Shown here: in pieces, positions 1-30,413 of the stretch
Layout: each line of letters opens with the position of its first letter
Position numbering within the stretch: the first letter of the stretch is position 1
Assembly (NCBI GenBank): GCA_017435465.1
Contig: JAFSEX010000005.1
Location: 223,982-287,981, forward strand
Direction of reading: 5' to 3'
Source of the DNA: Bacilli bacterium
GTDB lineage: Bacteria > Bacillota_I > Bacilli_A > RF39 > UBA660
Length of the DNA stretch: 64,000 bases
Program-made: the position numbers and the translations under genes
The notes under the pieces: generated by a model
The model's input: the letters and a program-made list of their open reading frames with translations, nothing else
The model's database searches: none
Told to the model about the DNA's origin: nothing

Positions 1-198
1 TGATAATATAGAAAATGTAAAAAAATATGCTAAAAATATAATTTGTTTCTATTCGGATAATGATCCTTATGTTAAATATGAGGTTGAAAAAGACTTTGCT
101 GATAAGGTTGCAACAGAACAAATATTATTAAACGACGCAGGACATATAAATGCAGAAAGTGGTTATGACACTTTTGAAGATATAGTAAATTATTTATA
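1..198 (+). CDS. 3' fragment of a serine-hydrolase-like gene (YdeN/RBBP9-type alpha/beta hydrolase C-terminus); the 5' end lies outside the window
   Basis: Reading frame is open from the window edge to TAA at 196-198. C-terminal sequence ...DAGHINAESGYDTFEDIVNYL resembles the conserved His region at the end of Ser_hydrolase family proteins. Confidence 0.3.
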
Positions 199-220
199 AT
201 AGTGAGATTTTTTATTAACA

Positions 221-1081
221 ATGAAAGATATAAAAAGAAAAGAACATTTTGTTCCACAAGCACACTTAAAAAACTTTAGTTTTAAAAATAAAAATACCGA
301 CAAAGTTGTTGTAATAGATAAAAACAAAGATGAAACATATCCAAGTAGTATTGATGATGTAGCTTGCCAAAGAGACTTTTATGAGGTTTACGACAAAGAA
401 ACTAACTATTGGGAAAATTGGTATGCAGAAATTGATGGTAAAATAACATCTATTTATAATTCAATAATAATAAATGCAAGATATGCAAATAACAAACAAA
501 AAATTTTAAGCGATTATTTAAAACAGGAATTATCCTTAATTATAGTTTCCCAAATGTTAAGAACTAAGGTTGCAAAAAAATATTTTTTATCAATAGGTAA
601 TGATATTACTACTGAAATGATAACAAGTACCAAAAGAATTCTGAAAGATGTACTAACTAATGAACAAGTTAATTTATTAGATGAATATATGAATAAAGAG
701 GATTTTATATATTCAACAGCACTGGATTATATGAATTCTGATAAATTTATTAAAAAAGCAATTAATATATTGCAAAATAAAATATGGATTGTACATAAAA
801 ATGTAAATTATAAAAAAATTCCTTTTGTTACAAGTGATAATCCAGTAATATTATATAATCTATTTACACATAAGGTTGGATTCGGTAGTAATGGATTACT
901 TAAAGATGGGACTGTTATATACTTTCCAATTAATAAAGAACTATTAGTAGCAATATATCCAAGATATGAAAATTTAGAGAAGTATAATAATAAAATAGAT
1001 TTTCTAAATGATGATAAATTTGTAATGAGTTTTAATAAATCTAATTATATACAATGTGAAAGGCAAGTTTTTTATTCATAG
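221..1081 (+). CDS. DUF4238 family protein
   Basis: 286-aa ORF. The N-terminal HFVPQAHLKNFSF matches the H-x-x-P-Q-x-x-L-x-x-F signature that opens DUF4238 proteins as I remember it. The ATG follows a T-rich spacer. Confidence 0.5.
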   Translation: MKDIKRKEHFVPQAHLKNFSFKNKNTDKVVVIDKNKDETYPSSIDDVACQRDFYEVYDKETNYWENWYAEIDGKITSIYNSIIINARYANNKQKILSDYLKQELSLIIVSQMLRTKVAKKYFLSIGNDITTEMITSTKRILKDVLTNEQVNLLDEYMNKEDFIYSTALDYMNSDKFIKKAINILQNKIWIVHKNVNYKKIPFVTSDNPVILYNLFTHKVGFGSNGLLKDGTVIYFPINKELLVAIYPRYENLEKYNNKIDFLNDDKFVMSFNKSNYIQCERQVFYS

Positions 1082-1089
1082 ATAAATTA

Positions 1090-1143
1090 ATGACAAGATG
1101 ACAGAAGTTTGAGACACCCACACAATTATTGTCATCTTGTCAT
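1090..1143. promoter_or_regulatory. Perfect 14-bp inverted repeat ATGACAAGATGACA(N26)TGTCATCTTGTCAT between the DUF4238 gene and the next gene; candidate operator or atypical terminator
   Basis: Left arm 1090-1103 is the exact reverse complement of right arm 1130-1143. No T-run follows. An extended -10 promoter (TGTTATAAT near 1222-1230) lies downstream. Confidence 0.4.
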
Positions 1144-1246
1144 AAAAAGAATTTTAAATATAATTTTGTTTTTTTAAATTAATATTAATAATTGTAAAAA
1201 ATTAATAAAATTATGTTATAATACATAATACATTCAAAAGGAGGTT

Positions 1247-2875
1247 TTGTTAATGAATATTGGAGATTTAGTACCAAGAAAGGATTATGAATATTATATT
1301 GTTGAAAAACTTTTTGTTAACCCTAAAAAACAAGGAGATATGGATGACTTGGATGATTGGGATGACTATAGCGACTATAAAATAGGTGAAAAAATAATAG
1401 CAGAAAAAAAATATCTTACGCGAGACGTTGGTGGATATGCTGATTCATTTAAAGAATTTTTAAAAAAATATTGTAGAGTTGCAACACTAGAAGAAGAGAA
1501 TAAAATGTATGAAGAAGAGTTTTCTAATGCTCTAGTATTAGATATATATGGCGATAAGAGTTACAATGTTGGTTTTTACTATGTTCCTACGAAAGATGTA
1601 GGTCTTGATGAATATACTCATGAACAAGATTCGTGGGAGAGATGGAAAAAGAAAGAAAAAATATTCAAAAATTTAGGAATAGATTCTGCAACATTTTACG
1701 AAATAGATGATGAGGGAAAATTTATTTATGTTGAGGGACGCAAAGCTAATGATGAATTATTAAAATATTGCAGATTAGCAACGCCAGAAGAGGCAAAAAC
1801 ATTTAATGCAATTGTAGCAGAAAGAAAAAGAATACAACGCGAAAAATATTTAGCAGAAAAACAAGCAGAAGAACAAGAAAAAATAGATAGATATAACAAA
1901 AATAAGAGTGATTCTAATTATTATCCAGGTAGTTGTGGAAACTATAATCAAGTATTAGTAAATAGCGATGGTACACCAGAAAAATCAAAATTATACGATT
2001 TATATACAATAAAACAATTTTATAATGAATTGATAAAATCAGGAAAGTTTGATAAAGAAATTTTAGAAAAAATAATGCTTTATGGTGGTACAGTCCCATA
2101 TATTTTAAGTAATACACAAGAAGAAACAAGAAAATTTGGTGATATTGATATATTTATTCCAATACAAAACATGAAAGTATTTAGAAATGCATTATTGGAT
2201 AAACCATATTTTGAGATGAACTTTGATTCAATGGAATTAACAGAAAAAGCAGGACTTTTAGTTGCGGGTTCCAGATTTGAAAGACCTTGGTTTATGGGAG
2301 ACGATGATGACATAGAAGCATATCGTGAATATGAAAGAATGGTATCAAAATTACAAGATGAAGCCAGAAAAAAAATTGTTTTTCAAGATTATGGATTTAA
2401 AGGTTCTTTGTTTGGAATTAATATCTCTGTATTTCCTATATATCAATGGAACAAAGATAATAAATTAGATATATGTGCTAAAAGTTTTAGAATTGGAAAA
2501 GAAGATGGTGATAGTAAATTCCTTCTTAATACAGTAGTAACTCATAATACACCTATCACATCATTTTCTAAACTTGTTGAAATCTGTGGTGGACAAATTG
2601 GAGCTGCAAACATTGAATATACAATAGCTAGTAAGAAAAGTGCGATAAATCATGGATACATATTAAGACAAGAAAGTGATTTAGCAGATTTACAATTTAT
2701 TGAAGATCATAAATCAATATTAGGAATAAATGACGCTTTAGTAAAACATTATGAAGAAAATATACCAGATTATGGAATAGCTAAAGTATATAGAATAAAA
2801 AGAAATTATGAAGTTTGTGAATATACTCCTGAACAATATAAAAATATAGTAACAAGAAATCACAAACCTTCTTAA
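1247..2875 (+). CDS. Large hypothetical protein with an internal repeat and a possible nucleotidyltransferase-fold motif (GG..x17..GDIDIF)
   Basis: 542-aa ORF with a strong RBS (AAAGGAGG, 8 nt upstream). The motif LYGGTVPYILSNTQEETRKFGDIDIFIP resembles the G[GS]...D-x-D signature of Pol-beta-type NTases, but the spacing is long. Two repeats of YCR(V/L)AT(L/P)EE occur near the N-terminus. Confidence 0.4.
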   Translation: MLMNIGDLVPRKDYEYYIVEKLFVNPKKQGDMDDLDDWDDYSDYKIGEKIIAEKKYLTRDVGGYADSFKEFLKKYCRVATLEEENKMYEEEFSNALVLDIYGDKSYNVGFYYVPTKDVGLDEYTHEQDSWERWKKKEKIFKNLGIDSATFYEIDDEGKFIYVEGRKANDELLKYCRLATPEEAKTFNAIVAERKRIQREKYLAEKQAEEQEKIDRYNKNKSDSNYYPGSCGNYNQVLVNSDGTPEKSKLYDLYTIKQFYNELIKSGKFDKEILEKIMLYGGTVPYILSNTQEETRKFGDIDIFIPIQNMKVFRNALLDKPYFEMNFDSMELTEKAGLLVAGSRFERPWFMGDDDDIEAYREYERMVSKLQDEARKKIVFQDYGFKGSLFGINISVFPIYQWNKDNKLDICAKSFRIGKEDGDSKFLLNTVVTHNTPITSFSKLVEICGGQIGAANIEYTIASKKSAINHGYILRQESDLADLQFIEDHKSILGINDALVKHYEENIPDYGIAKVYRIKRNYEVCEYTPEQYKNIVTRNHKPS

Positions 2876-2884
2876 GAAACTTAA

Positions 2885-2920
2885 AAAAGGTAGTTGAAAA
2901 TCTTCAACTACCTTTTCAAC
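2885..2920 (+). terminator. Rho-independent terminator after the 1247-2875 gene
   Basis: AAAAGGTAGTTGAA / TTCAACTACCTTTT hairpin followed by a T-rich stretch. Confidence 0.6.
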
Positions 2921-3031
2921 TACCAATATTTTTAATTCATTCTAATTATTAAGTAAAATAAATATTTTTAAATGTAATAAAATAAAGGTAAAAGTATTTA
3001 TATAAACTTTGAAGTACGTGAATACTAACCG

Positions 3032-3176
3032 CCCCCTGAAGACTAGCCGAGAGGCTAGTCATTTTTGTTTATCCCAATAAAATCAAGGGTTTGCGAGGGC
3101 TGGGGTAGTAAAAAACACCTTTTCAGGTAACAAAAAGGTAACACTTTTTGCTACTTAAGTGTTACCTGAAAGCATA
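3032..3176 (+). repeat. Intergenic repeat copy A: unit X (CCCCCTGAAG, hairpin GACTAGCC-gaga-GGCTAGTC, ATTTTTGTTT...AAGGGTTTGCGAG) followed by unit Y (GGTAACAAAAAGGTAACAC...GTGTTACCTGAAAGCAT)
   Basis: The hairpin at 3041-3060 is followed by a T-run, so it is terminator-like. Both units recur at 4972-5172 with 70-80% identity; in copy B the hairpin stem sequence differs but base-pairing is preserved. Confidence 0.6.
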
Positions 3177-3291
3177 TTTTACAAAAAATAATCTTTGTAA
3201 ATGCTTATAAAATAAGACTTTTTGATAAAAATAAGTTAGTCCAAATGGTTTTGGTTGATTGTGTGATATAATTATAATGAGAGGTGTAATT

Positions 3292-4086
3292 ATGGCAACA
3301 AGTATTTTTGATATTGAGGTAAGATTAGACATAAATAAAGAATTTAATAAAATGGTTAAATATTTGCATCATACCAGTAATACAACATATACCAAAATAT
3401 ATGGCAGTACATTTATTGAGGCAATTAATTATTATGCGATTAAGGTTTGGCCATATAGAGGAACTGCGATAACTTGTGAAGAATATTTGGAGAATATTGG
3501 TATATCATCTTATTATTTTAAAGATGGAATGGGAATTGATAAAATTAAATTCTTATACTATTTAGAATTTATATATAATATATATAAGTTTGCTAGTTAT
3601 AGAGGATTAATTAAAATTGAAAGCGAAAGTGTAAAAGCTATAATCAAAAATCTTAATCTAATAGTAGAACAAATGAATTATGAATTTGTAAAAAAAGAAG
3701 ATAAATATTTATTAGTAAAAAGAAATGCTGATATTGATAGTATATTAACTCTAGTTGAAAAGGACATTGCAGAATTATTGTTAGAATATAATGATTTTAA
3801 AATAAAAGATAACTTGCAACGAAAAAGTGAGATACTTAAATCAATAGATAAATATATTGAAAAGAATCAGTCTGAATATTCTAAAATTGATAAAGATTCA
3901 TATAAATCATGGGGATATATAGTCAATAATTTTGGCGTGAATCATAAGACAAATGAAAAATATAAAGATGAAGACGAAAATAATTTAATAAAATGGTATG
4001 ATAAAGCTTTTATGTTAAGTATACATTTAATTAGATTAACTAAGATAAAAGAAATTAACAATGAAAGAAAAAGTTTAGAAAGTTAA
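3292..4086 (+). CDS. Hypothetical protein (first gene of the repeat-bracketed cassette)
   Basis: ORF 3259-4086. The internal ATG at 3292 (MATSIFDIEV...) has a GAGAGGTG RBS. I recognise no motifs. Confidence 0.55.
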   Translation: MATSIFDIEVRLDINKEFNKMVKYLHHTSNTTYTKIYGSTFIEAINYYAIKVWPYRGTAITCEEYLENIGISSYYFKDGMGIDKIKFLYYLEFIYNIYKFASYRGLIKIESESVKAIIKNLNLIVEQMNYEFVKKEDKYLLVKRNADIDSILTLVEKDIAELLLEYNDFKIKDNLQRKSEILKSIDKYIEKNQSEYSKIDKDSYKSWGYIVNNFGVNHKTNEKYKDEDENNLIKWYDKAFMLSIHLIRLTKIKEINNERKSLES

Positions 4087-4125
4087 ATTGTATGTTATAA
4101 TAGTTAATACCAAAGGGAGGTTTTT

Positions 4126-4950
4126 ATGACTATAGATAAGATAGATATTAACTTAACAGAAGATACATATGCTTATATATACAGAGATAGCGAAAAAGAA
4201 ATATCTGAAACATTTAAAGAAACTTTAAAGAAATATGTTGGGATAATAAATGATTTAGTAAATAAAGATTTAAAACAATTATCTGATGAAGAATTTTATA
4301 ACTTACTTTGTAATGTATATAGTATAACTTTAACTACTGGAGATTATTTAAAAATAATTTCAAAAAGAAATAATAAAAAATATAATAAATTTACTGAAAT
4401 TGATACATTTATGACTTTTGCAGATACTGCTACTGAGGGACGTGGTAAAGGTTTCAGTTGGTGGCAACAATTATATCAAGTTAGTTATATTGTTGCAGTT
4501 TCAGAAAATACAGAAATTAAGTATGGAAGTACTTTAAAAAAAGAAGATATTAAAAGAATGGTAGAAGATAAATCCATAGTTATAGTAAAATCTATAACAA
4601 AACCAATAGAACATAAATTAAATATAAATGAAGAAGTTGAAAACATACCAACAATGGAATTAAATTGTTCTCATTCTTGTGGTAATATATATGGTTCAAT
4701 ATGCAAAGATGATAATTTCCCAATTATCGTTTCAATGTTAAGAAGAAAATTTACTAAAAATAGAATACTTAAAGACATGAAAGCATATATTGAGGAATTA
4801 CAAGATGAAATGCAAATAGTATTATCACATTCACAACCAGATTATGCTTATAATGAAGTATCAAAATTATGTAATGAATGGTATGAAAATTCAGAAGAAA
4901 AAGAAACATTTAAAAGTTTGCAAAGAAAACTTAAAAGCACAGAAATTTAA
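4126..4950 (+). CDS. Hypothetical protein (second gene of the cassette)
   Basis: 274-aa ORF with RBS AAGGGAGG, starting 40 bp after the previous stop. I recognise no motifs. Confidence 0.6.
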   Translation: MTIDKIDINLTEDTYAYIYRDSEKEISETFKETLKKYVGIINDLVNKDLKQLSDEEFYNLLCNVYSITLTTGDYLKIISKRNNKKYNKFTEIDTFMTFADTATEGRGKGFSWWQQLYQVSYIVAVSENTEIKYGSTLKKEDIKRMVEDKSIVIVKSITKPIEHKLNINEEVENIPTMELNCSHSCGNIYGSICKDDNFPIIVSMLRRKFTKNRILKDMKAYIEELQDEMQIVLSHSQPDYAYNEVSKLCNEWYENSEEKETFKSLQRKLKSTEI

Positions 4951-4971
4951 TATAATTAAAAATTATTTTTG

Positions 4972-5210
4972 AGGTAACAAAAAGGTAACATTTTTTCAAA
5001 TTTAGGTGTACTGAAACAGCATGAAATTGAACTAAATTGGCCCAAAATGGACTTTTTTGAACCTGTTTGAACTATGAAAACAACGAATTTAAAATCCCCC
5101 TGAAGCTAGGTCGAGAGACCTAGCATTTTTGTTTTTCTAAGGAAAACAAAGGGTTTGCGAAGATTGAAGTAGCCCAAAGTGTATTTTTATCTACACTTTA
5201 TCTACACTTT
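4972..5210 (+). repeat. Intergenic repeat copy B: unit Y (4972-5022), then unit X with hairpin GCTAGGTC-gaga-GACCTAGC (5096-5172), then a duplicated ATCTACAC motif (5189-5207)
   Basis: Direct similarity to 3032-3176. The stem has compensatory changes on both arms. ATCTACACTTTATCTACAC recurs at 6738-6756. Confidence 0.6.
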
Positions 5211-5440
5211 TTTGACCTAAATTTTTAAGAACAAAATCTCGAAATTCCTTATAAAACCTAGAAAAGTTTAATATCGAAGTAATTAAAATTAAAAAATGAG
5301 TTTTACCAAGGTATTTAGGGGATTTTTTAAGTAATTAGAAAATTTGAGTTCCTTTATTTATCTAGGTTTAAGAATTAAAAAAATAAAATGTATGTTGCCC
5401 CTGGAAGTATCCTGAGGCAAAAAATGTGATATAATTATAT

Positions 5441-5956
5441 ATGGAAGTGATAATTATGCGATTGAGAAAACCTAAATTAGAAGATAAAGAAAAATTAAAA
5501 GATTATGTAGAAGAACATCATGTCAATGGTGAAATGAGTATTAGTGCTTCTAATGGGATGTCAACAATGAATTATGAAGAATGGCTAGAAAAACTAAAAA
5601 TAGATGAGTCTGGAGAAAATAAAGAATGGGGTATTTCAGAAACTTATATTTTAGAAGATAATGATAAAGTAATTGGAATGCTAAATATTAGATATACTTT
5701 ATCAGATGAAATGGCGGGAATTTATGGTCATATAGGTTATGGAGTAAGACCAACTGAAAGAAGAAAAGGATATGCAACTTATATGTTAAAAGAAGCGTTG
5801 ATAAAATGCAAAGAAAGGGGAATGGGTGAAGTAATATTAGGTTGTTATGAAGATAACTTTGGATCTAATAAAACAATTATAAATAACAATGGTGTTTTAT
5901 ATAAAAAATCTAAAATGAAAGATAAAGATTCTTTATATTATAAAATAAATTTGTAA
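5441..5956 (+). CDS. GNAT family N-acetyltransferase
   Basis: The stretch HIGYGVRPTERRKGYATYMLKEAL fits the acetyl-CoA binding motif A region (R/Q-x-x-G-x-G/A) of GNAT enzymes. Size is 171 aa. Confidence 0.6.
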   Translation: MEVIIMRLRKPKLEDKEKLKDYVEEHHVNGEMSISASNGMSTMNYEEWLEKLKIDESGENKEWGISETYILEDNDKVIGMLNIRYTLSDEMAGIYGHIGYGVRPTERRKGYATYMLKEALIKCKERGMGEVILGCYEDNFGSNKTIINNNGVLYKKSKMKDKDSLYYKINL

Positions 5957-5970
5957 AAGGAGTAGATAAT

Positions 5971-6726
5971 ATGAGAGTAAATTATTTTTGTAGTGGTTTT
6001 GATGTCAATAATGCTTTTTGGCCAGAGTTGGCAGAAAGGTTTAAAAATGAAATGACCGATACGAAAAGTATTGTTTATATTCCAGGTAGTCCACAAAAGA
6101 TAGAAAAAGCAAAAACAAAATATGTTCCTGCATTTACAGAGCATTTTAGAAAAGCAGGAATTCAATTTGAAAGTTCTTATTTGATTTCACCTGAAATGGA
6201 TTCTTAGGAAGCTAAAGATTTAATTAATAATGCAAGTTTTGTCATGTTAATGGGTGGGGATCCTTTTGCCCAAAAAGAAATGTGTGAAAAATTAGGAATA
6301 TTAGAAAATTTAAAAAAATATAATGGAGTAATGCTAGGATTTAGTGCAGGTGCTATGTTAATGTCTAAAAATATAATAATCACACCTTGTAGTGAAGAAT
6401 ATCCGGATTTTCATATTGAACCAGGAATGAATTTATCAGAAATATCAATTTATCCACACAATAATTTTGGTGGAAATGAATATCCTGAAAAAGTTTGCGC
6501 TGGAGATGAAACCTACGATAGAAATGATTTAATTAAAGTGGCGCAAGAATATGGTGAATTTTATTTATTACAAGATCATTTAAATGAAACTGGGTTAACA
6601 AATGTTAGCTTAATAAGAACCTGTGGTTTAGAAATTGAGTTTATCACTCAAAATGATGGCAAAATTTTTAAAGCAACAAGTAATGGTATTGAGCTACTTA
6701 CAGATAACAAAAAATATACAAGATAA
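5971..6726 (+). pseudogene. Peptidase E-like (S51 family) gene interrupted by a single in-frame amber codon (TAG 6205-6207)
   Basis: ORFs 5971-6207 and 6244-6726 are in the same frame (offset 273 = 91 codons). The joined protein carries S51-like motifs (LMGGDP, GFSAGAM). Confidence 0.5.
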
Positions 6727-6900
6727 AATAATAAATTATCTACACTTTTATCTACGAATTTTCTAAATTCTAGGGTGGTGTAGCAATTGTCTAAAATGGC
6801 AATATGCCGTATTTTAAGGGATTAAAAGGTATTGTAAGATAATCAAATTGCCCCTAAAATTTTTCCCCTTGAAGAGACCAAACAAACTAAATAATTTTCT
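6727..6900. repeat. Third locus of the intergenic repeat family (ATCTACACTTTTATCTACG; partial X-like CCCCTTGAAGAGACC)
   Basis: Shares the motif at 6738-6756 with 5189-5207 and an X-like segment near 6865-6880. Confidence 0.4.
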
Positions 6901-6955
6901 ATTATTAATATTTATGTTATAATCATGGTATATCCATAGAATAAAAGGTGATTAT

Positions 6956-7801
6956 ATGACAGGATTAGTATTAGAAGGTGGCGCAATGCGTGGAATGTAT
7001 ACCGCAGGAGTATTAGATGTTTTATTAGAAAACAGTATTAAAATAGACGGTATAATTGGAGTTTCAGCAGGTGCATTATTTGGTGTTAATTATTTTTCAA
7101 AACAAAAAGGAAGAGTAATAAGATACAGTAAAAGATTTTGCAAAGATATACGATATATGAGTAAATTATCATTTTTATTAACAGGTAATATTGTTAACAA
7201 AAACTTTGCCTTTTATAAAGTTACCAAAAAATTAGATAAATTTGATAATGATACATTTATCAAAAATAACAAAAATTATTATGCCACTGTAACAAATGTA
7301 GAAACTGGAAATCCAGAATATATAAAAATTGATAATCCAATTAAACAACTAGAAGTTTTAAGAGCAACATCTGCTATCCCTCTTGCATCTAAAATTATAA
7401 AAATAGATGATAAAAAATATTTAGACGGTGGAATATCAGATAGTATTCCAATTCATAAATGTAAAGATTTGGGATATGAAAAAATAATTTTAATTTTAAC
7501 TCAACCACTAAATTATAGAAAAAATTCATTAGATAAAAATAAAGAAAAATTAATTGAAAAAAAATTTAAAAAATATCCTAAACTTATAAACACAATGAAA
7601 AATAGACATAATAATTATAATAGTACAATAGAAAAAATAATTGATATGGAAAATGAAAAAGAAATATTTGTAATAAGACCCTCAAAAAAAATAGATATTA
7701 ATCTTATTGAAAGAGATAGTAATAAATTACAAGAAGTATATGATTTAGGTGTTAGTGATTGTAAAAAAAATTTAAAGAAATTAAAAGAATACTTAAGATA
7801 A
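6956..7801 (+). CDS. Patatin-like phospholipase
   Basis: Gly-rich oxyanion motif GGAMRGMYTAGVLDVL, GxSxG nucleophile motif GVSAGALFG, and a DGG catalytic Asp region. Confidence 0.75.
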   Translation: MTGLVLEGGAMRGMYTAGVLDVLLENSIKIDGIIGVSAGALFGVNYFSKQKGRVIRYSKRFCKDIRYMSKLSFLLTGNIVNKNFAFYKVTKKLDKFDNDTFIKNNKNYYATVTNVETGNPEYIKIDNPIKQLEVLRATSAIPLASKIIKIDDKKYLDGGISDSIPIHKCKDLGYEKIILILTQPLNYRKNSLDKNKEKLIEKKFKKYPKLINTMKNRHNNYNSTIEKIIDMENEKEIFVIRPSKKIDINLIERDSNKLQEVYDLGVSDCKKNLKKLKEYLR

Positions 7802-7816
7802 GGATAGTGAAAATAT

Positions 7817-8710
7817 ATGGAAAAATCAAAAGTTTATTTTACAAAAAATATTAATTCAAATAGTCTTGTAGAAATTTATAATACATTAAATAAAGATTTA
7901 AATGGTAAAGTTGCTATTAAGATATCAACTGGAGAAAAAGGTAATAATAATTATTTGAATCCATTGCTTATAAAAGACTTAGTTCAAAGTTTAAATGGAA
8001 CTATAGTAGAATGTAATACAGCATATGCTGGCAAAAGAAATACTACTAAAGAACATTTAGAAACTGCTAAAGAACATGGATTTTTTGATATTGCGAATGT
8101 AGATATTATGGATTCTGAAGGTGATATTGAATTACCAATAAAAGGTGGAAAACATTTAAAAGTAAATTATGTTGGTAAAAATATTAAAAATTATGATTCA
8201 ATTTTAATATTATCACATTTTAAAGGACATCCTATGGGAGGCTTTGGAGGAGCACTAAAAAATATGTCAATAGGGATTGCTTCTTCAAAAGGAAAATGTT
8301 GGATACATAGTGCGGGTAAAGTAGATAATCCTAAGACAATATGGAAAAATACGGCACCACAAGATGTATTTTTAGAATGTATGGGAGAAGCTGACAAATC
8401 AGTTATAGATTATTTTAAAGATAATATTGCCTATATAAATGTTATAAACAATCTTTCAGTAGATTGTGATTGTGTAGCAACACCAGAAAAACCATGTATG
8501 CATGATATAGGAATTGCTGCATCATTAGATCCAGTTGCGTTAGATAAAGCATGTCTAGATTTAATATATAATTCTACTGATGAAGGTAGAGAACATTTTA
8601 TTAAACGTGTTGAAACTAAAAATGGTAAACATATAATTGATTATGCGGTTACACTTAAAATAGGTAATGATAATTATGAATTAATAAATATTGATAAATA
8701 TCAAGATTAA
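7817..8710 (+). CDS. DUF362-like domain protein (Fe-S associated, unknown function)
   Basis: SHFKGHPMGGFGGALKN and DCDC motifs resemble DUF362 proteins, which frequently neighbour ferredoxins. Confidence 0.45.
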   Translation: MEKSKVYFTKNINSNSLVEIYNTLNKDLNGKVAIKISTGEKGNNNYLNPLLIKDLVQSLNGTIVECNTAYAGKRNTTKEHLETAKEHGFFDIANVDIMDSEGDIELPIKGGKHLKVNYVGKNIKNYDSILILSHFKGHPMGGFGGALKNMSIGIASSKGKCWIHSAGKVDNPKTIWKNTAPQDVFLECMGEADKSVIDYFKDNIAYINVINNLSVDCDCVATPEKPCMHDIGIAASLDPVALDKACLDLIYNSTDEGREHFIKRVETKNGKHIIDYAVTLKIGNDNYELINIDKYQD

Positions 8711-12352: not shown

Positions 12353-12429
12353 GTCCTGGTAGCTCAGCTGGATAGAGCATGCGCCTTCTAAGCGCACGGT
12401 CAGGGGTTCGAATCCCTTCCAGGACACCA
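12353..12429 (+). tRNA. tRNA-Arg (anticodon TCT)
   Basis: 77-nt cloverleaf: acceptor GTCCTGG/CCAGGAC, D-arm GCTC-AGCTGGATA-GAGC, anticodon stem TGCGC/GCGCA with loop CTTCTAA (anticodon TCT), T-arm with GGTTCGAATCC, 3' CCA encoded. Confidence 0.85.
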
Positions 12430-29763: not shown

Positions 29764-30192
29764 ATGAAAAAGTTTAAACGTTCCCTTCGTGGCTATAATA
29801 CAAAAGAAGTTAATGCTTTTGTAAATGAAGTTGTAAGCCAAGTTGAAATTATGGTTAATCAAATAAAAGAAAAAGATTTAAAAATACAAGCATTAAATGC
29901 AAATCTTTTAAAATATAAAAATATGGAAGAAACTCTAAATAAATCTATAGTTATGGCTCAAGAAACTTCAGAACAAATGAGAAGAATGGCGCGCATTGAA
30001 AGTGAAAATATTATTAGTGATGCAAAGAAAAACGCTAATAAGATTGTAAATGATGCATTAACTAGAGCTTCAAAAGTTGAAGCAGAAACTGCTGTTCTTA
30101 AGAAAAATATAAATATATTTAAAACAAGATTAAAAAATATTATTGAACAACAATTACAAATGGTTGATGATATGGATAATATAGATATTTAA
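29764..30192 (+). CDS. divIVA: DivIVA-domain protein
   Basis: N-terminal FKRSLRGYNTKEVNAFVNEV is the DivIVA motif, followed by a coiled coil. Same order (sepF...divIVA-ileS) as the B. subtilis ylm/divIVA region. Confidence 0.65.
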   Translation: MKKFKRSLRGYNTKEVNAFVNEVVSQVEIMVNQIKEKDLKIQALNANLLKYKNMEETLNKSIVMAQETSEQMRRMARIESENIISDAKKNANKIVNDALTRASKVEAETAVLKKNINIFKTRLKNIIEQQLQMVDDMDNIDI

Positions 30193-30199
30193 AACAAAT

Positions 30200-30413
30200 G
30201 ATAGAGACGGTATTTTAATTTAATTTAAGCGAGTAGGGATTTTGGTGTAAGCCTATAATATAAATTAAAATATAGATCACTCTTGATGTGTCTTTCTGAT
30301 ATTAGGAAAGAACCTTATACTAGGTTACAAGTATCTAAGTGTATGATAATAATCATAAACTAAGGTGGTACCGCGGGAAAATCTCGTCCTTAAATTTTTA
30401 AGGACGTTTTTTT
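30200..30413 (+). ncRNA. T-box riboswitch leader (probably Ile-specific), ending in an intrinsic terminator
   Basis: Conserved T-box sequence AAGGTGGTACCGCGGG at 30362-30377. Terminator CGTCCTTAA/TTAAGGACG plus T7 at 30385-30413. Upstream AGAGA and AGTAGGGA (AG-box) elements. A candidate specifier ATC followed by A is at 30286-30289. Confidence 0.7.

Follow-up and report, generated by a model that had tools for sequence, protein, structure and literature searches.

Tandem accretion of integrative elements at the 3' end of a gene is known from streptococci, where integrative conjugative elements (ICE), integrative mobilizable elements (IME) and cis-mobilizable elements (CIME) stack up, for example ICESt1/ICESt3 and IME_Sag2603_tRNAlys. 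There, tyrosine-integrase elements enter the end of a gene without disrupting it, one of the flanking repeats contains that gene end, and arrays combine a functional IME (with a MobV/Mob_Pre relaxase) with integrase-less units that keep both attachment (att) sites, attL and attR (PMC5704250). In Dehalococcoides, several tandem islands lie downstream of the single-copy transfer-messenger RNA (tmRNA) gene ssrA; they are bounded by direct repeats of the 3' end of that gene, their integration module is on the reverse strand beside attL, and some units without a module were proposed to be CIMEs (PMC3146451). All these traits have counterparts at the locus analysed here, which begins left of, and runs into, a 64,000-nucleotide stretch of contig JAFSEX010000005.1 (positions 223,982 to 287,981, assembly GCA_017435465.1) from an uncultured Bacilli bacterium (GTDB lineage Bacillota_I; Bacilli_A; RF39; UBA660). 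This whole stretch, called the window below, contains two repeat units, X and Y, around small gene cassettes. We document the anatomy of the locus, the structure of a small RNA (sRNA) at its head, the adjacency of integrases, its recurrence in other genomes and the variability of its cargo, and we propose that the repeats are very probably att sites of tandem mobile islands stacked at the 3' end of the sRNA gene.

A preliminary description of the window had reported X and Y as structured repeats, and shuffle tests and direct reading bear this out for both. X (copies X-A, 3032-3108, and X-B, 5096-5172) follows the pattern CCCCCTGAAG-N7-GAGA-N7-CATTTTTGTTT, found exactly twice in the 64 kb, on the forward strand at 3032-3070 and 5096-5134, against 0.00 expected from shuffles; AAGGGTTTGCGA stands at equal distance after either copy (3085 and 5149), and the repeat family as a whole (D1) covers 77 nucleotides (nt) at 71% identity. 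Y (Y-A, 3106-3176; Y-B, 4953-5023) carries AGGTAACAAAAAGGTAACA at 3125-3143 and 4972-4990 (expected 0.02) within a repeat family (D3) of 57 nt and 77% identity. The units are ordered X then Y on the left and Y then X on the right, and the X copies of the window all share one strand and one locus. The two X stems, GACTAGCC/GGCTAGTC and GCTAGGTC/GACCTAGC, differ at five of eight positions, yet every pair is still Watson-Crick, exactly as had been claimed. A terminator scan reports both hairpins as intrinsic terminators of eight pairs, five of them G-C, followed by ATTTTTGTTT; each is a G+C-rich stem-loop with a run of U, on the same strand as and downstream of a transcription unit, as expected of Rho-independent termination. 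The third partial locus of the preliminary description is also real: ATCTACAC and ATCTACG at 6738-6756 precede a degenerate core, CCCCTTGAAG, at 6865-6874, which has no hairpin. Its statement that such elements separate every gene from 221 to 8710 has to be cut down to three junctions, and it did not include a further repeat set left of X-A (2889-2924), made of GGTAGTTG followed by CAACTACC, TTTT and CAACTACC. From left to right, the features of the array in the window are the following:

1-3031, forward strand: right-hand 3 kb of a predicted integrative mobilizable element, IME1, whose other end is on this contig to the left of the window
2889-2924, forward strand: putative distal (P) arm of IME1, with inverted GGTAGTTG at 2889-2896 and direct CAACTACC at 2905-2912 and 2917-2924
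3032-3070, forward strand: X-A, the IME1/E2 junction, with the core CCCCCTGAAG (3032-3041), an 8-bp terminator hairpin with a GAGA loop (3041-3060) and then ATTTTTGTTT
3085-3097, forward strand: motif AAGGGTTTGCGAG after the terminator, of which a related form, TTATAAGGGTTTGCAAG, follows most X copies
3125-3167, forward strand: Y-A, putative proximal (P') arm of cassette E2, with AGGTAACA at 3125-3132 and 3136-3143 and inverted TGTTACCT at 3160-3167
3168-3291, forward strand: conserved E2 leader with an extended -10 box, TGaTATAAT, at about 3264-3272 (a promoter predicted from sequence)
3292-4950, forward strand: E2 cargo, a 264-aa gene (3292-4086) and a 274-aa gene (4126-4950)
4972-4990, forward strand: Y-B, putative distal (P) arm of E2, with AGGTAACA twice and a degenerate inverted copy
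5096-5134, forward strand: X-B, the E2/E3 junction, with the core CCCCCTGAAG (5096-5105), a terminator hairpin (5105-5124) and a T-run
5189-5207, forward strand: putative proximal arm of cassette E3, ATCTACAC at 5189-5196 and 5200-5207 (repeat family D20)
5398-5407, forward strand: degenerate core relic CCCCTGGAAG within the left end of E3, also present in locus L065
5441-6726, forward strand: E3 cargo, a GNAT acetyltransferase gene (5441-5956) and an S51-peptidase-like gene (5971-6726)
6738-6756, forward strand: putative distal arm of E3, ATCTACAC at 6738-6745 and ATCTACG at 6750-6756
6865-6874, forward strand: X-C, the degenerate last core CCCCTTGAAG without hairpin, at the right edge of the array

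Here and below L001, L002 and so on are locus labels; L108 is the window's own contig, of which a 20-kb stretch was used that reaches 9.8 kb left of the window start (L108 coordinate = window + 9780). The AAGGGTTTGCGAG/TTATAAGGGTTTGCAAG motif (3085-3097 and 5149-5161 in the window) lies 14-25 nt past the U-run of the terminator and is kept across element types; a weaker form is seen at apparently unoccupied sites. Two short-read contigs of the same locus (L109 and L002, run SRR12529390) stop at window positions 3061, 3201 and 4996, the first of which falls within the X-A hairpin and the last just past the Y-B repeats, the behaviour expected for repeats or for strain-variable junctions.

The identity of X is given by what lies outside the window. 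X is the 3' end (CCCCCUGAAG, terminator hairpin and U-run) of a three-hairpin sRNA of ~100 nt directly downstream of recG. The full-length copy on the window's contig is at L108:2212-2316, ~7.5 kb left of the window start, and scores 97.9 bits with our covariance model (R1), which matches X-A (47.5 bits) and X-B (47.6 bits) by its 3' part alone, that is, core and terminator. The sRNA consists of two hairpins, a C-rich single strand (AACCAAAACCCCCUGAAG) and the intrinsic terminator, and it has a promoter of its own. Across genomes the sequence upstream of X falls into two classes. The native class has, in this order, a sigma-70-type promoter, two hairpins that vary in sequence yet remain paired, AACC(A/G)AA(A)C, CCCCCTGAAG and the terminator; in the element class the far end of a mobile element stands upstream of X. 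The end of recG lies 100-260 nt upstream in ~45 loci, the encoded proteins being 47-68% identical in amino acids to that of the window's contig, and each native copy, folded singly, gives three hairpins. R1 recovers 46 full-length copies from 46 species-level genomes (a lower bound) of uncultured gut Bacilli. In its alignment 95.9% of cells are paired, against 29-41% in controls with slid partners; changes on both sides are seen in 22 of the 25 pairs, and helix 4 is 99.7% paired with covariation in seven of its eight pairs. A promoter of the form TTGAC[AT]-N16-18-TAnnnT precedes 39 of 49 copies. This structure came from folding the copies one by one, annotating a cleaner subset by hand and letting the model realign the copies; a MAFFT alignment of 45 native copies had misplaced hairpin 2, and RNAalifold then gave two helices only. 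When the window and five native loci were searched, Rfam 15 returned no family at the gathering threshold for the sRNA, and searches by E-value up to 10 gave chance-level matches only. Promoter, structure and covariation together argue for a genuine sRNA, which is predicted to be expressed. Loop insertions of 30-40 nt are found in hairpin 2 of the sRNA in L074 and L105, and L008 and L024 have an inverted core copy, CCTTCAGGGG, past the terminator, ~40 nt after X.

Between the sRNA gene and X-A lies IME1, an element of 10.5 kb whose right end corresponds to window 2884-3031. The order on the contig is recG, sRNA, GCTTTCAACTACCGACTAACTACC, a reverse-strand tyrosine integrase gene, a Mob_Pre relaxase gene, an AAA_25 gene, a 78-aa gene, a helix-turn-helix (HTH) protein gene and cargo; recG, the sRNA, the CAACTACC/TAACTACC repeats and the integrase stop codon were all read directly from the contig sequence. 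A perfect 11-bp direct repeat, CCCCCTGAAGA, flanks the element, once inside the sRNA (L108:2272-2282) and once, 10.5 kb away, at window 3032-3042. The integrase (L108 2376-3521, reverse strand; PF00589, 9e-27, and PF14659) is at one end of IME1 and adjoins an att site, with ~60 nt between its stop codon and the arm repeats and ~100 nt between its stop codon and the core; the CAACTACC pair of the right end is found again at this opposite end, between the sRNA and the integrase stop codon. The relaxase (PF01076) is encoded at L108 3617-5047, and the remaining genes between the two IME1 cores gave no match to families of the type IV secretion system, so that IME1 has a relaxase and no family match for a conjugative pore, as is usual for an IME. 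The sequence of its right end precedes X also in L033, L049, L067, L075 and L088. With the sRNA gene as attL, the integrase, Mob_Pre and AAA_25, IME1 has the gene content of an integrative mobilizable element, and its excision is predicted. Its cargo in the window comprises a DUF4238 protein (221-1081) and a 542-aa protein without family match (1247-2875); the former matches the PADLOC candidate defence model DUF4238-Pers, and the pair may be a defence system.

The same architecture occurs in more than 80 gut Bacilli genomes. Scanning one genome per species for CCCCTGAAG-N17-19-CATTTTTGTT gave 102 loci, ~85 of which have a perfect hairpin, the remaining ~17 being chance matches without one; nearly all real matches come from uncultured gut Bacilli (rabbit, goat, sheep, roe deer, human). 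The collection holds 87 X copies with 31 hairpin variants, nearly all perfectly paired. In 13 other loci an integrase homologue (38-90% identity) starts 106-306 nt past X, on the reverse strand in 12 of them, and a direct-repeat pair separates X from the integrase (in at least 10 loci, X from the convergent integrase stop codon). The motif of this pair varies with the integrase clade: CAACTACC goes with a group of 88-90% identical integrases (L044, L045, L059, L081, L089), AGATACC with L073 and L074, AGGCTCTA with L085, AGGTAGCA with L086, CACCTCTTAT with L092 and L098, and TTTACCTATAC with L118. About 12 other loci are arrays of two or three X copies spaced by 0.9-4 kb, and for 30 of 85 X copies the contig breaks off within the next 200 nt.

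Comparison of these loci places the breakpoint of similarity at the core. Element-specific sequence reaches CCCCTGAAG on the left, and on the right the stems diverge right after GAAG. Three pairs of loci (L084/L047, L011/L092 and L023/L050) have ~80% identical recG and ~90% identical sRNA 5' parts, yet unrelated stem-loops (33-61%); conversely L108 and L055, with distant recG genes, have 100% identical stem-loops, and L044 and L089 are 91.5% identical on the integrase side as against ~80% in recG. Because the breakpoint is at the core, we infer that crossover takes place in or beside these 10 bp and that the terminator travels with the element, which would explain both the 31 hairpin variants and the one hairpin common to 34 of the 87 X copies, borne by the widespread CAACTACC-type IME. 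Judging by position and by co-variation with the integrase clade, Y, the CAACTACC pair and the ATCTACAC pair are most likely type-specific repeat pairs and putative arm sites to which the integrases would bind.

The data suggest the following scenario. The target would be the ~100-nt sRNA gene, with its own promoter, directly downstream of recG. Tyrosine integrases would recombine within or beside CCCCCTGAAG, each incoming element bringing everything 3' of the core, namely a terminator hairpin with its U-run, the short conserved motif and the direct-repeat pair (7-9 nt) of its element type. After insertion the sRNA would still have a working terminator, and the core would be duplicated at the far end of the element. 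Stepwise insertions could then have produced the present order of recG, sRNA with the first core, IME1, X-A, E2, X-B, E3 and the degenerate X-C. X would be an att junction and Y the arm-type repeat set at both ends of a AGGTAACA-type cassette. Every element would be selected for terminating the sRNA and, as a by-product, its terminator would also end transcription of the cassette upstream.

Several claims of the preliminary description can now be judged. That the hairpin is under selection for structure holds, as it is the intrinsic terminator of an sRNA; the integrase that was to be looked for nearby exists, ~6.3 kb left of the window start; and the bracketing of cassettes is confirmed, gene content differing between genomes. 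The checks it proposed were run, and they yielded further copies elsewhere, a covariance model and variable cargo. Its treatment of X and Y as units of one family has to be replaced, X being the duplicated end of the target gene (att core) and Y the arm repeat of an element type. Nor would the compensatory differences between the X stems have arisen in place: they are accounted for because X-A and X-B come from different imported elements, so that the hairpins would belong to two different horizontally acquired units.

E2 lies between X-A and X-B and has AGGTAACA arm repeats within both ends. Y-B, separated from X-B by ~100 nt, is without the inverted third GGTAACA copy that Y-A keeps at 3160-3167. 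The Y-A module is found also in L039, L118 and L151, and right ends homologous to the Y-B end in L039, L151 and L189. The leader, whose promoter is predicted to drive the cargo, is 81-90% identical in nucleotides to those of L039, L110, L118, L151 and L174 despite differing cargo. The 264-aa and 274-aa proteins have no significant match in Pfam, NCBIfam, PADLOC or PHROGs. Elsewhere, E2-type ends enclose four other cargos in four neighbourhoods (L039, L118, L151, L174), among them a metallophosphoesterase-like gene with a 301-aa gene in L039, a single 388-aa gene in L151 and an S51 peptidase in L118, where the E2-type cassette comes right after the native sRNA and is followed by another X, TTTACCTATAC three times and an integrase. 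The non-coding E2-type ends are 81-90% identical, against 68% for the recG DNA of the same genomes. Because the same ends enclose other cargo next to differing neighbours (L039, L118, L151 and L189), while the recG DNA is only 68% identical, E2 appears to belong to a horizontally spreading family of integrase-less cassettes, which the IME literature would call CIMEs (PMC5704250). The E2/E3 region (3292-6726) matched no recombinase or relaxase family, and tblastn with the IME1 integrase found nothing in the window; both E2 and E3 have attL/attR-type bounds and are without an integrase or transfer genes of their own.

E3 (5096-6864), with X-B and X-C as its bounds, carries ATCTACAC repeats at either end. 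A cassette in L065 has homologous ends on the left and on the right; at the right end the identity is 85.6%, and in L065 an intact X comes next and closes the cassette. L065 also has an X identical to X-B, with the same ATCTACA arm. The L065 cassette, of the ATCTACA type, encodes (L065:5616-6509, reverse strand) a protein that strongly matches PDC-S18, a candidate defence protein of PADLOC (1e-105). The S51-like gene of E3 is interrupted by an in-frame TAG (6205-6207), leaving open reading frames of 78 and 160 aa, where the homologue on the metagenome contig L174 is intact and has GAG. A close relationship to the S51 peptidase of L118 was considered and dropped, as tblastn gave no match. In L174 the 264-aa gene is directly followed by the intact S51-like gene; in the window the 274-aa gene, Y-B, X-B, the ATCTACAC arm and the GNAT gene additionally intervene.

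How far does this evidence carry? Several observations weigh against an array of att-bounded mobile islands. The match of the IME1 integrase to Arm-DNA-bind_4 is below the Pfam threshold (18.3 versus 22.3 bits), the window itself is without an integrase, and none stands beside AGGTAACA-type arms in any locus found, L110, L118, L151, L174 and L189 included. Junctions without X exist in L110 and L174; the window and L174 differ (4087-5941) by an indel whose ends are off the att cores; and the X array of L039 and L065 has the reverse orientation to recG, on the opposite strand and convergent with it, which suggests inversion of the whole locus. Because the scan pattern demanded CCCCTGAAG and CATTTTTGTT (core and T-run), their invariance is partly a matter of ascertainment; the core is still present in covariance-model matches found independently of that pattern. 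Mobility, that of the present-day E2 and E3 included, is deduced from comparisons between genomes. The X-less junctions are hybrids in which the left flank is of the Y-B type and the right flank of the Y-A type; together with the L174 breakpoints they indicate that the array has been reshaped by ordinary recombination too. Decay appears in the degenerate third core, the nonsense codon of the S51-like gene, the hybrid Y junctions and the non-att indel; degenerate cores stand at two sites of the window (5398-5407 and 6865-6874).

Such traces give real weight to the idea of a fossil array, in which E2 and E3 are decayed, immobile remains, X is only a terminator between cassettes and Y has no present function. 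We consider this a serious contender, if somewhat short of an even chance: neither E2 and E3 nor the rest of the window has an integrase, the third core has degenerated, another relic of a core remains at 5398-5407, the S51-like cargo gene has a nonsense codon, a C-terminal integrase fragment persists inside the L046 cassette, and in the published model CIMEs form when elements decay and then accrete (PMC5704250). Yet the ends of the E2 type, which are non-coding, have stayed much more alike than recG and enclose unrelated cargo in four different neighbourhoods, a conservation that is hard to account for without recent movement or selection on the ends. It is tempting to speculate that the AGGTAACA-type units are instead a distinct class of miniature, integrase-less, promoter-bearing cassettes, moved in trans by related tyrosine integrases into the CCCCCTGAAG core; this is a tentative proposal, with a chance we would put below one in two by a wide stretch. 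A different reading takes Y and the other direct-repeat pairs for operators through which a regulator acts on the cassette promoter, not for integrase arm sites. Y-A does lie ~120 nt upstream of the conserved promoter and leader, L110 and L174 have Y and a promoter between genes without X, and IME1 encodes an HTH protein. We nevertheless judge it unlikely, as the repeats also occur at distal cassette ends with no promoter after them (Y-B; 2889-2924; 6738-6756), the repeat pair sits between X and a convergent integrase stop codon in 10 loci or more, the repeat sequence tracks the integrase clade, and the X-less hybrid junctions are those expected from deletion between two arms.

An integron reading, and the comparison with transposable hairpins made in the preliminary description, fare less well. 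An integron-like array with X as attC would account for small one-strand cassettes with structured sites between them and variable cargo. It is very improbable here, where the head of the array is the recG-sRNA gene without intI or attI, the integrase lies inside a relaxase-bearing IME with arm repeats flanking, the cassettes have their own conserved promoter region, and X, a perfectly paired 8-bp GNRA hairpin ahead of a U-run, is unlike the imperfect palindrome of an attC site. Slighter still is the chance that X and Y form a MITE-like (miniature inverted-repeat transposable element) or IS200/IS605-type transposable repeat with subterminal hairpins: the hairpin does lie near gene-block boundaries and the family has many members, but neither the window nor the 20-kb L108 stretch has a Y1 transposase (TnpA) or TnpB, within the 64 kb X and Y are confined to one locus and one strand with a single hairpin type, the boundaries have tyrosine integrases, and the hairpin serves to terminate a covarying sRNA, the 5' part of which occurs only beside recG. 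A local segmental duplication that happened to include terminators would fit two window copies each of X and Y; with the unit order reversed between left and right, copies only 71-77% identical, stems wholly different and a family present in more than 80 genomes, it is refuted for practical purposes.

BLAST of X-Y against plasmid and phage collections gave no match, and three pattern matches in viral contigs were set aside as chance, none having the hairpin. When metagenomes were scanned for the 19-mer of Y, most matches were unrelated contigs of higher GC that have clusters of GGTAACA repeats, and only L110, L118, L151, L174 and L189 were relevant. Six metagenome contigs from unrelated bacteria (L117, L140, L142, L168, L175 and L193; 34-46% G+C) have GGTAACA clusters, three direct and three inverted, right after the end of a conserved coding sequence, and the heptamer probably serves as a protein-binding repeat in other bacteria also. 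The window has a Firmicute-like G+C content of ~25%; it contains a T-box leader at 30189-30394 (107 bits) and a tRNA-Arg(TCT) gene at 12353-12429. An island anchored at that tRNA gene was ruled out, its 3' end not being repeated anywhere in the window.

The findings have consequences beyond this locus. Intergenic covariation here would stem from the horizontal import of alternative terminators and not from evolution in place, which calls for caution when compensatory changes are read as such. A strongly covarying sRNA family outside Rfam, conserved beside recG, is now revealed, and its gene appears to be a hotspot where integrase elements stack cassettes, some with candidate anti-phage genes (DUF4238-Pers, PDC-S18). 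The combination of recG, the sRNA and CCCCCTGAAG offers a simple anchor by which flexible gene content and new integrase/att pairs can be located in these poorly studied bacteria. If the AGGTAACA-type units do form a cassette class of their own, the recG-sRNA locus of gut Bacilli would be an integron-like platform for gene capture that uses lambda-type att sites; each element would then need to bring a working sRNA terminator, so the sRNA itself would be under selection.

Set beside known systems, the array shares with integrons its one strand, its units of one or two genes, the structured recombination sites between them and highly variable cargo; it differs in having no IntI or attI, in its double-strand att cores with arm repeats instead of folded attC sites, and in cassettes that carry a promoter. 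In Prochlorococcus, tycheposons reportedly stack as integrative elements at RNA genes and build up islands in which partial target-gene copies stand between small units of cargo; they belong to another phylum, target tRNA genes and use other mobility genes. Phage and island integrases that target tRNA genes have sublocation preferences, as discussed by Williams in 2002, and their elements are said to bring a replacement 3' part of the RNA gene, which stays functional. Here the replaced part is a terminator hairpin free to covary, and therefore elements can carry very different stems. Compared with the streptococcal systems, the target is a gene for a small regulatory-type RNA instead of a tRNA or protein gene, the element replaces the intrinsic terminator of that gene, and the integrase-less units, alike in their conserved arms and promoter leader but with interchangeable cargo of one or two genes, make up a family. 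In the Dehalococcoides islands the recombinase is of the serine type (CcrB-like) and the repeat, of 20 bp, lies in the T-loop of the tmRNA (PMC3146451), whereas the present elements have lambda-type tyrosine integrases with arm repeats and a ~10-bp core next to a diverged terminator. The kind of system, IME/CIME accretion at an RNA gene, is therefore known; the sRNA target and the cassette family are new.

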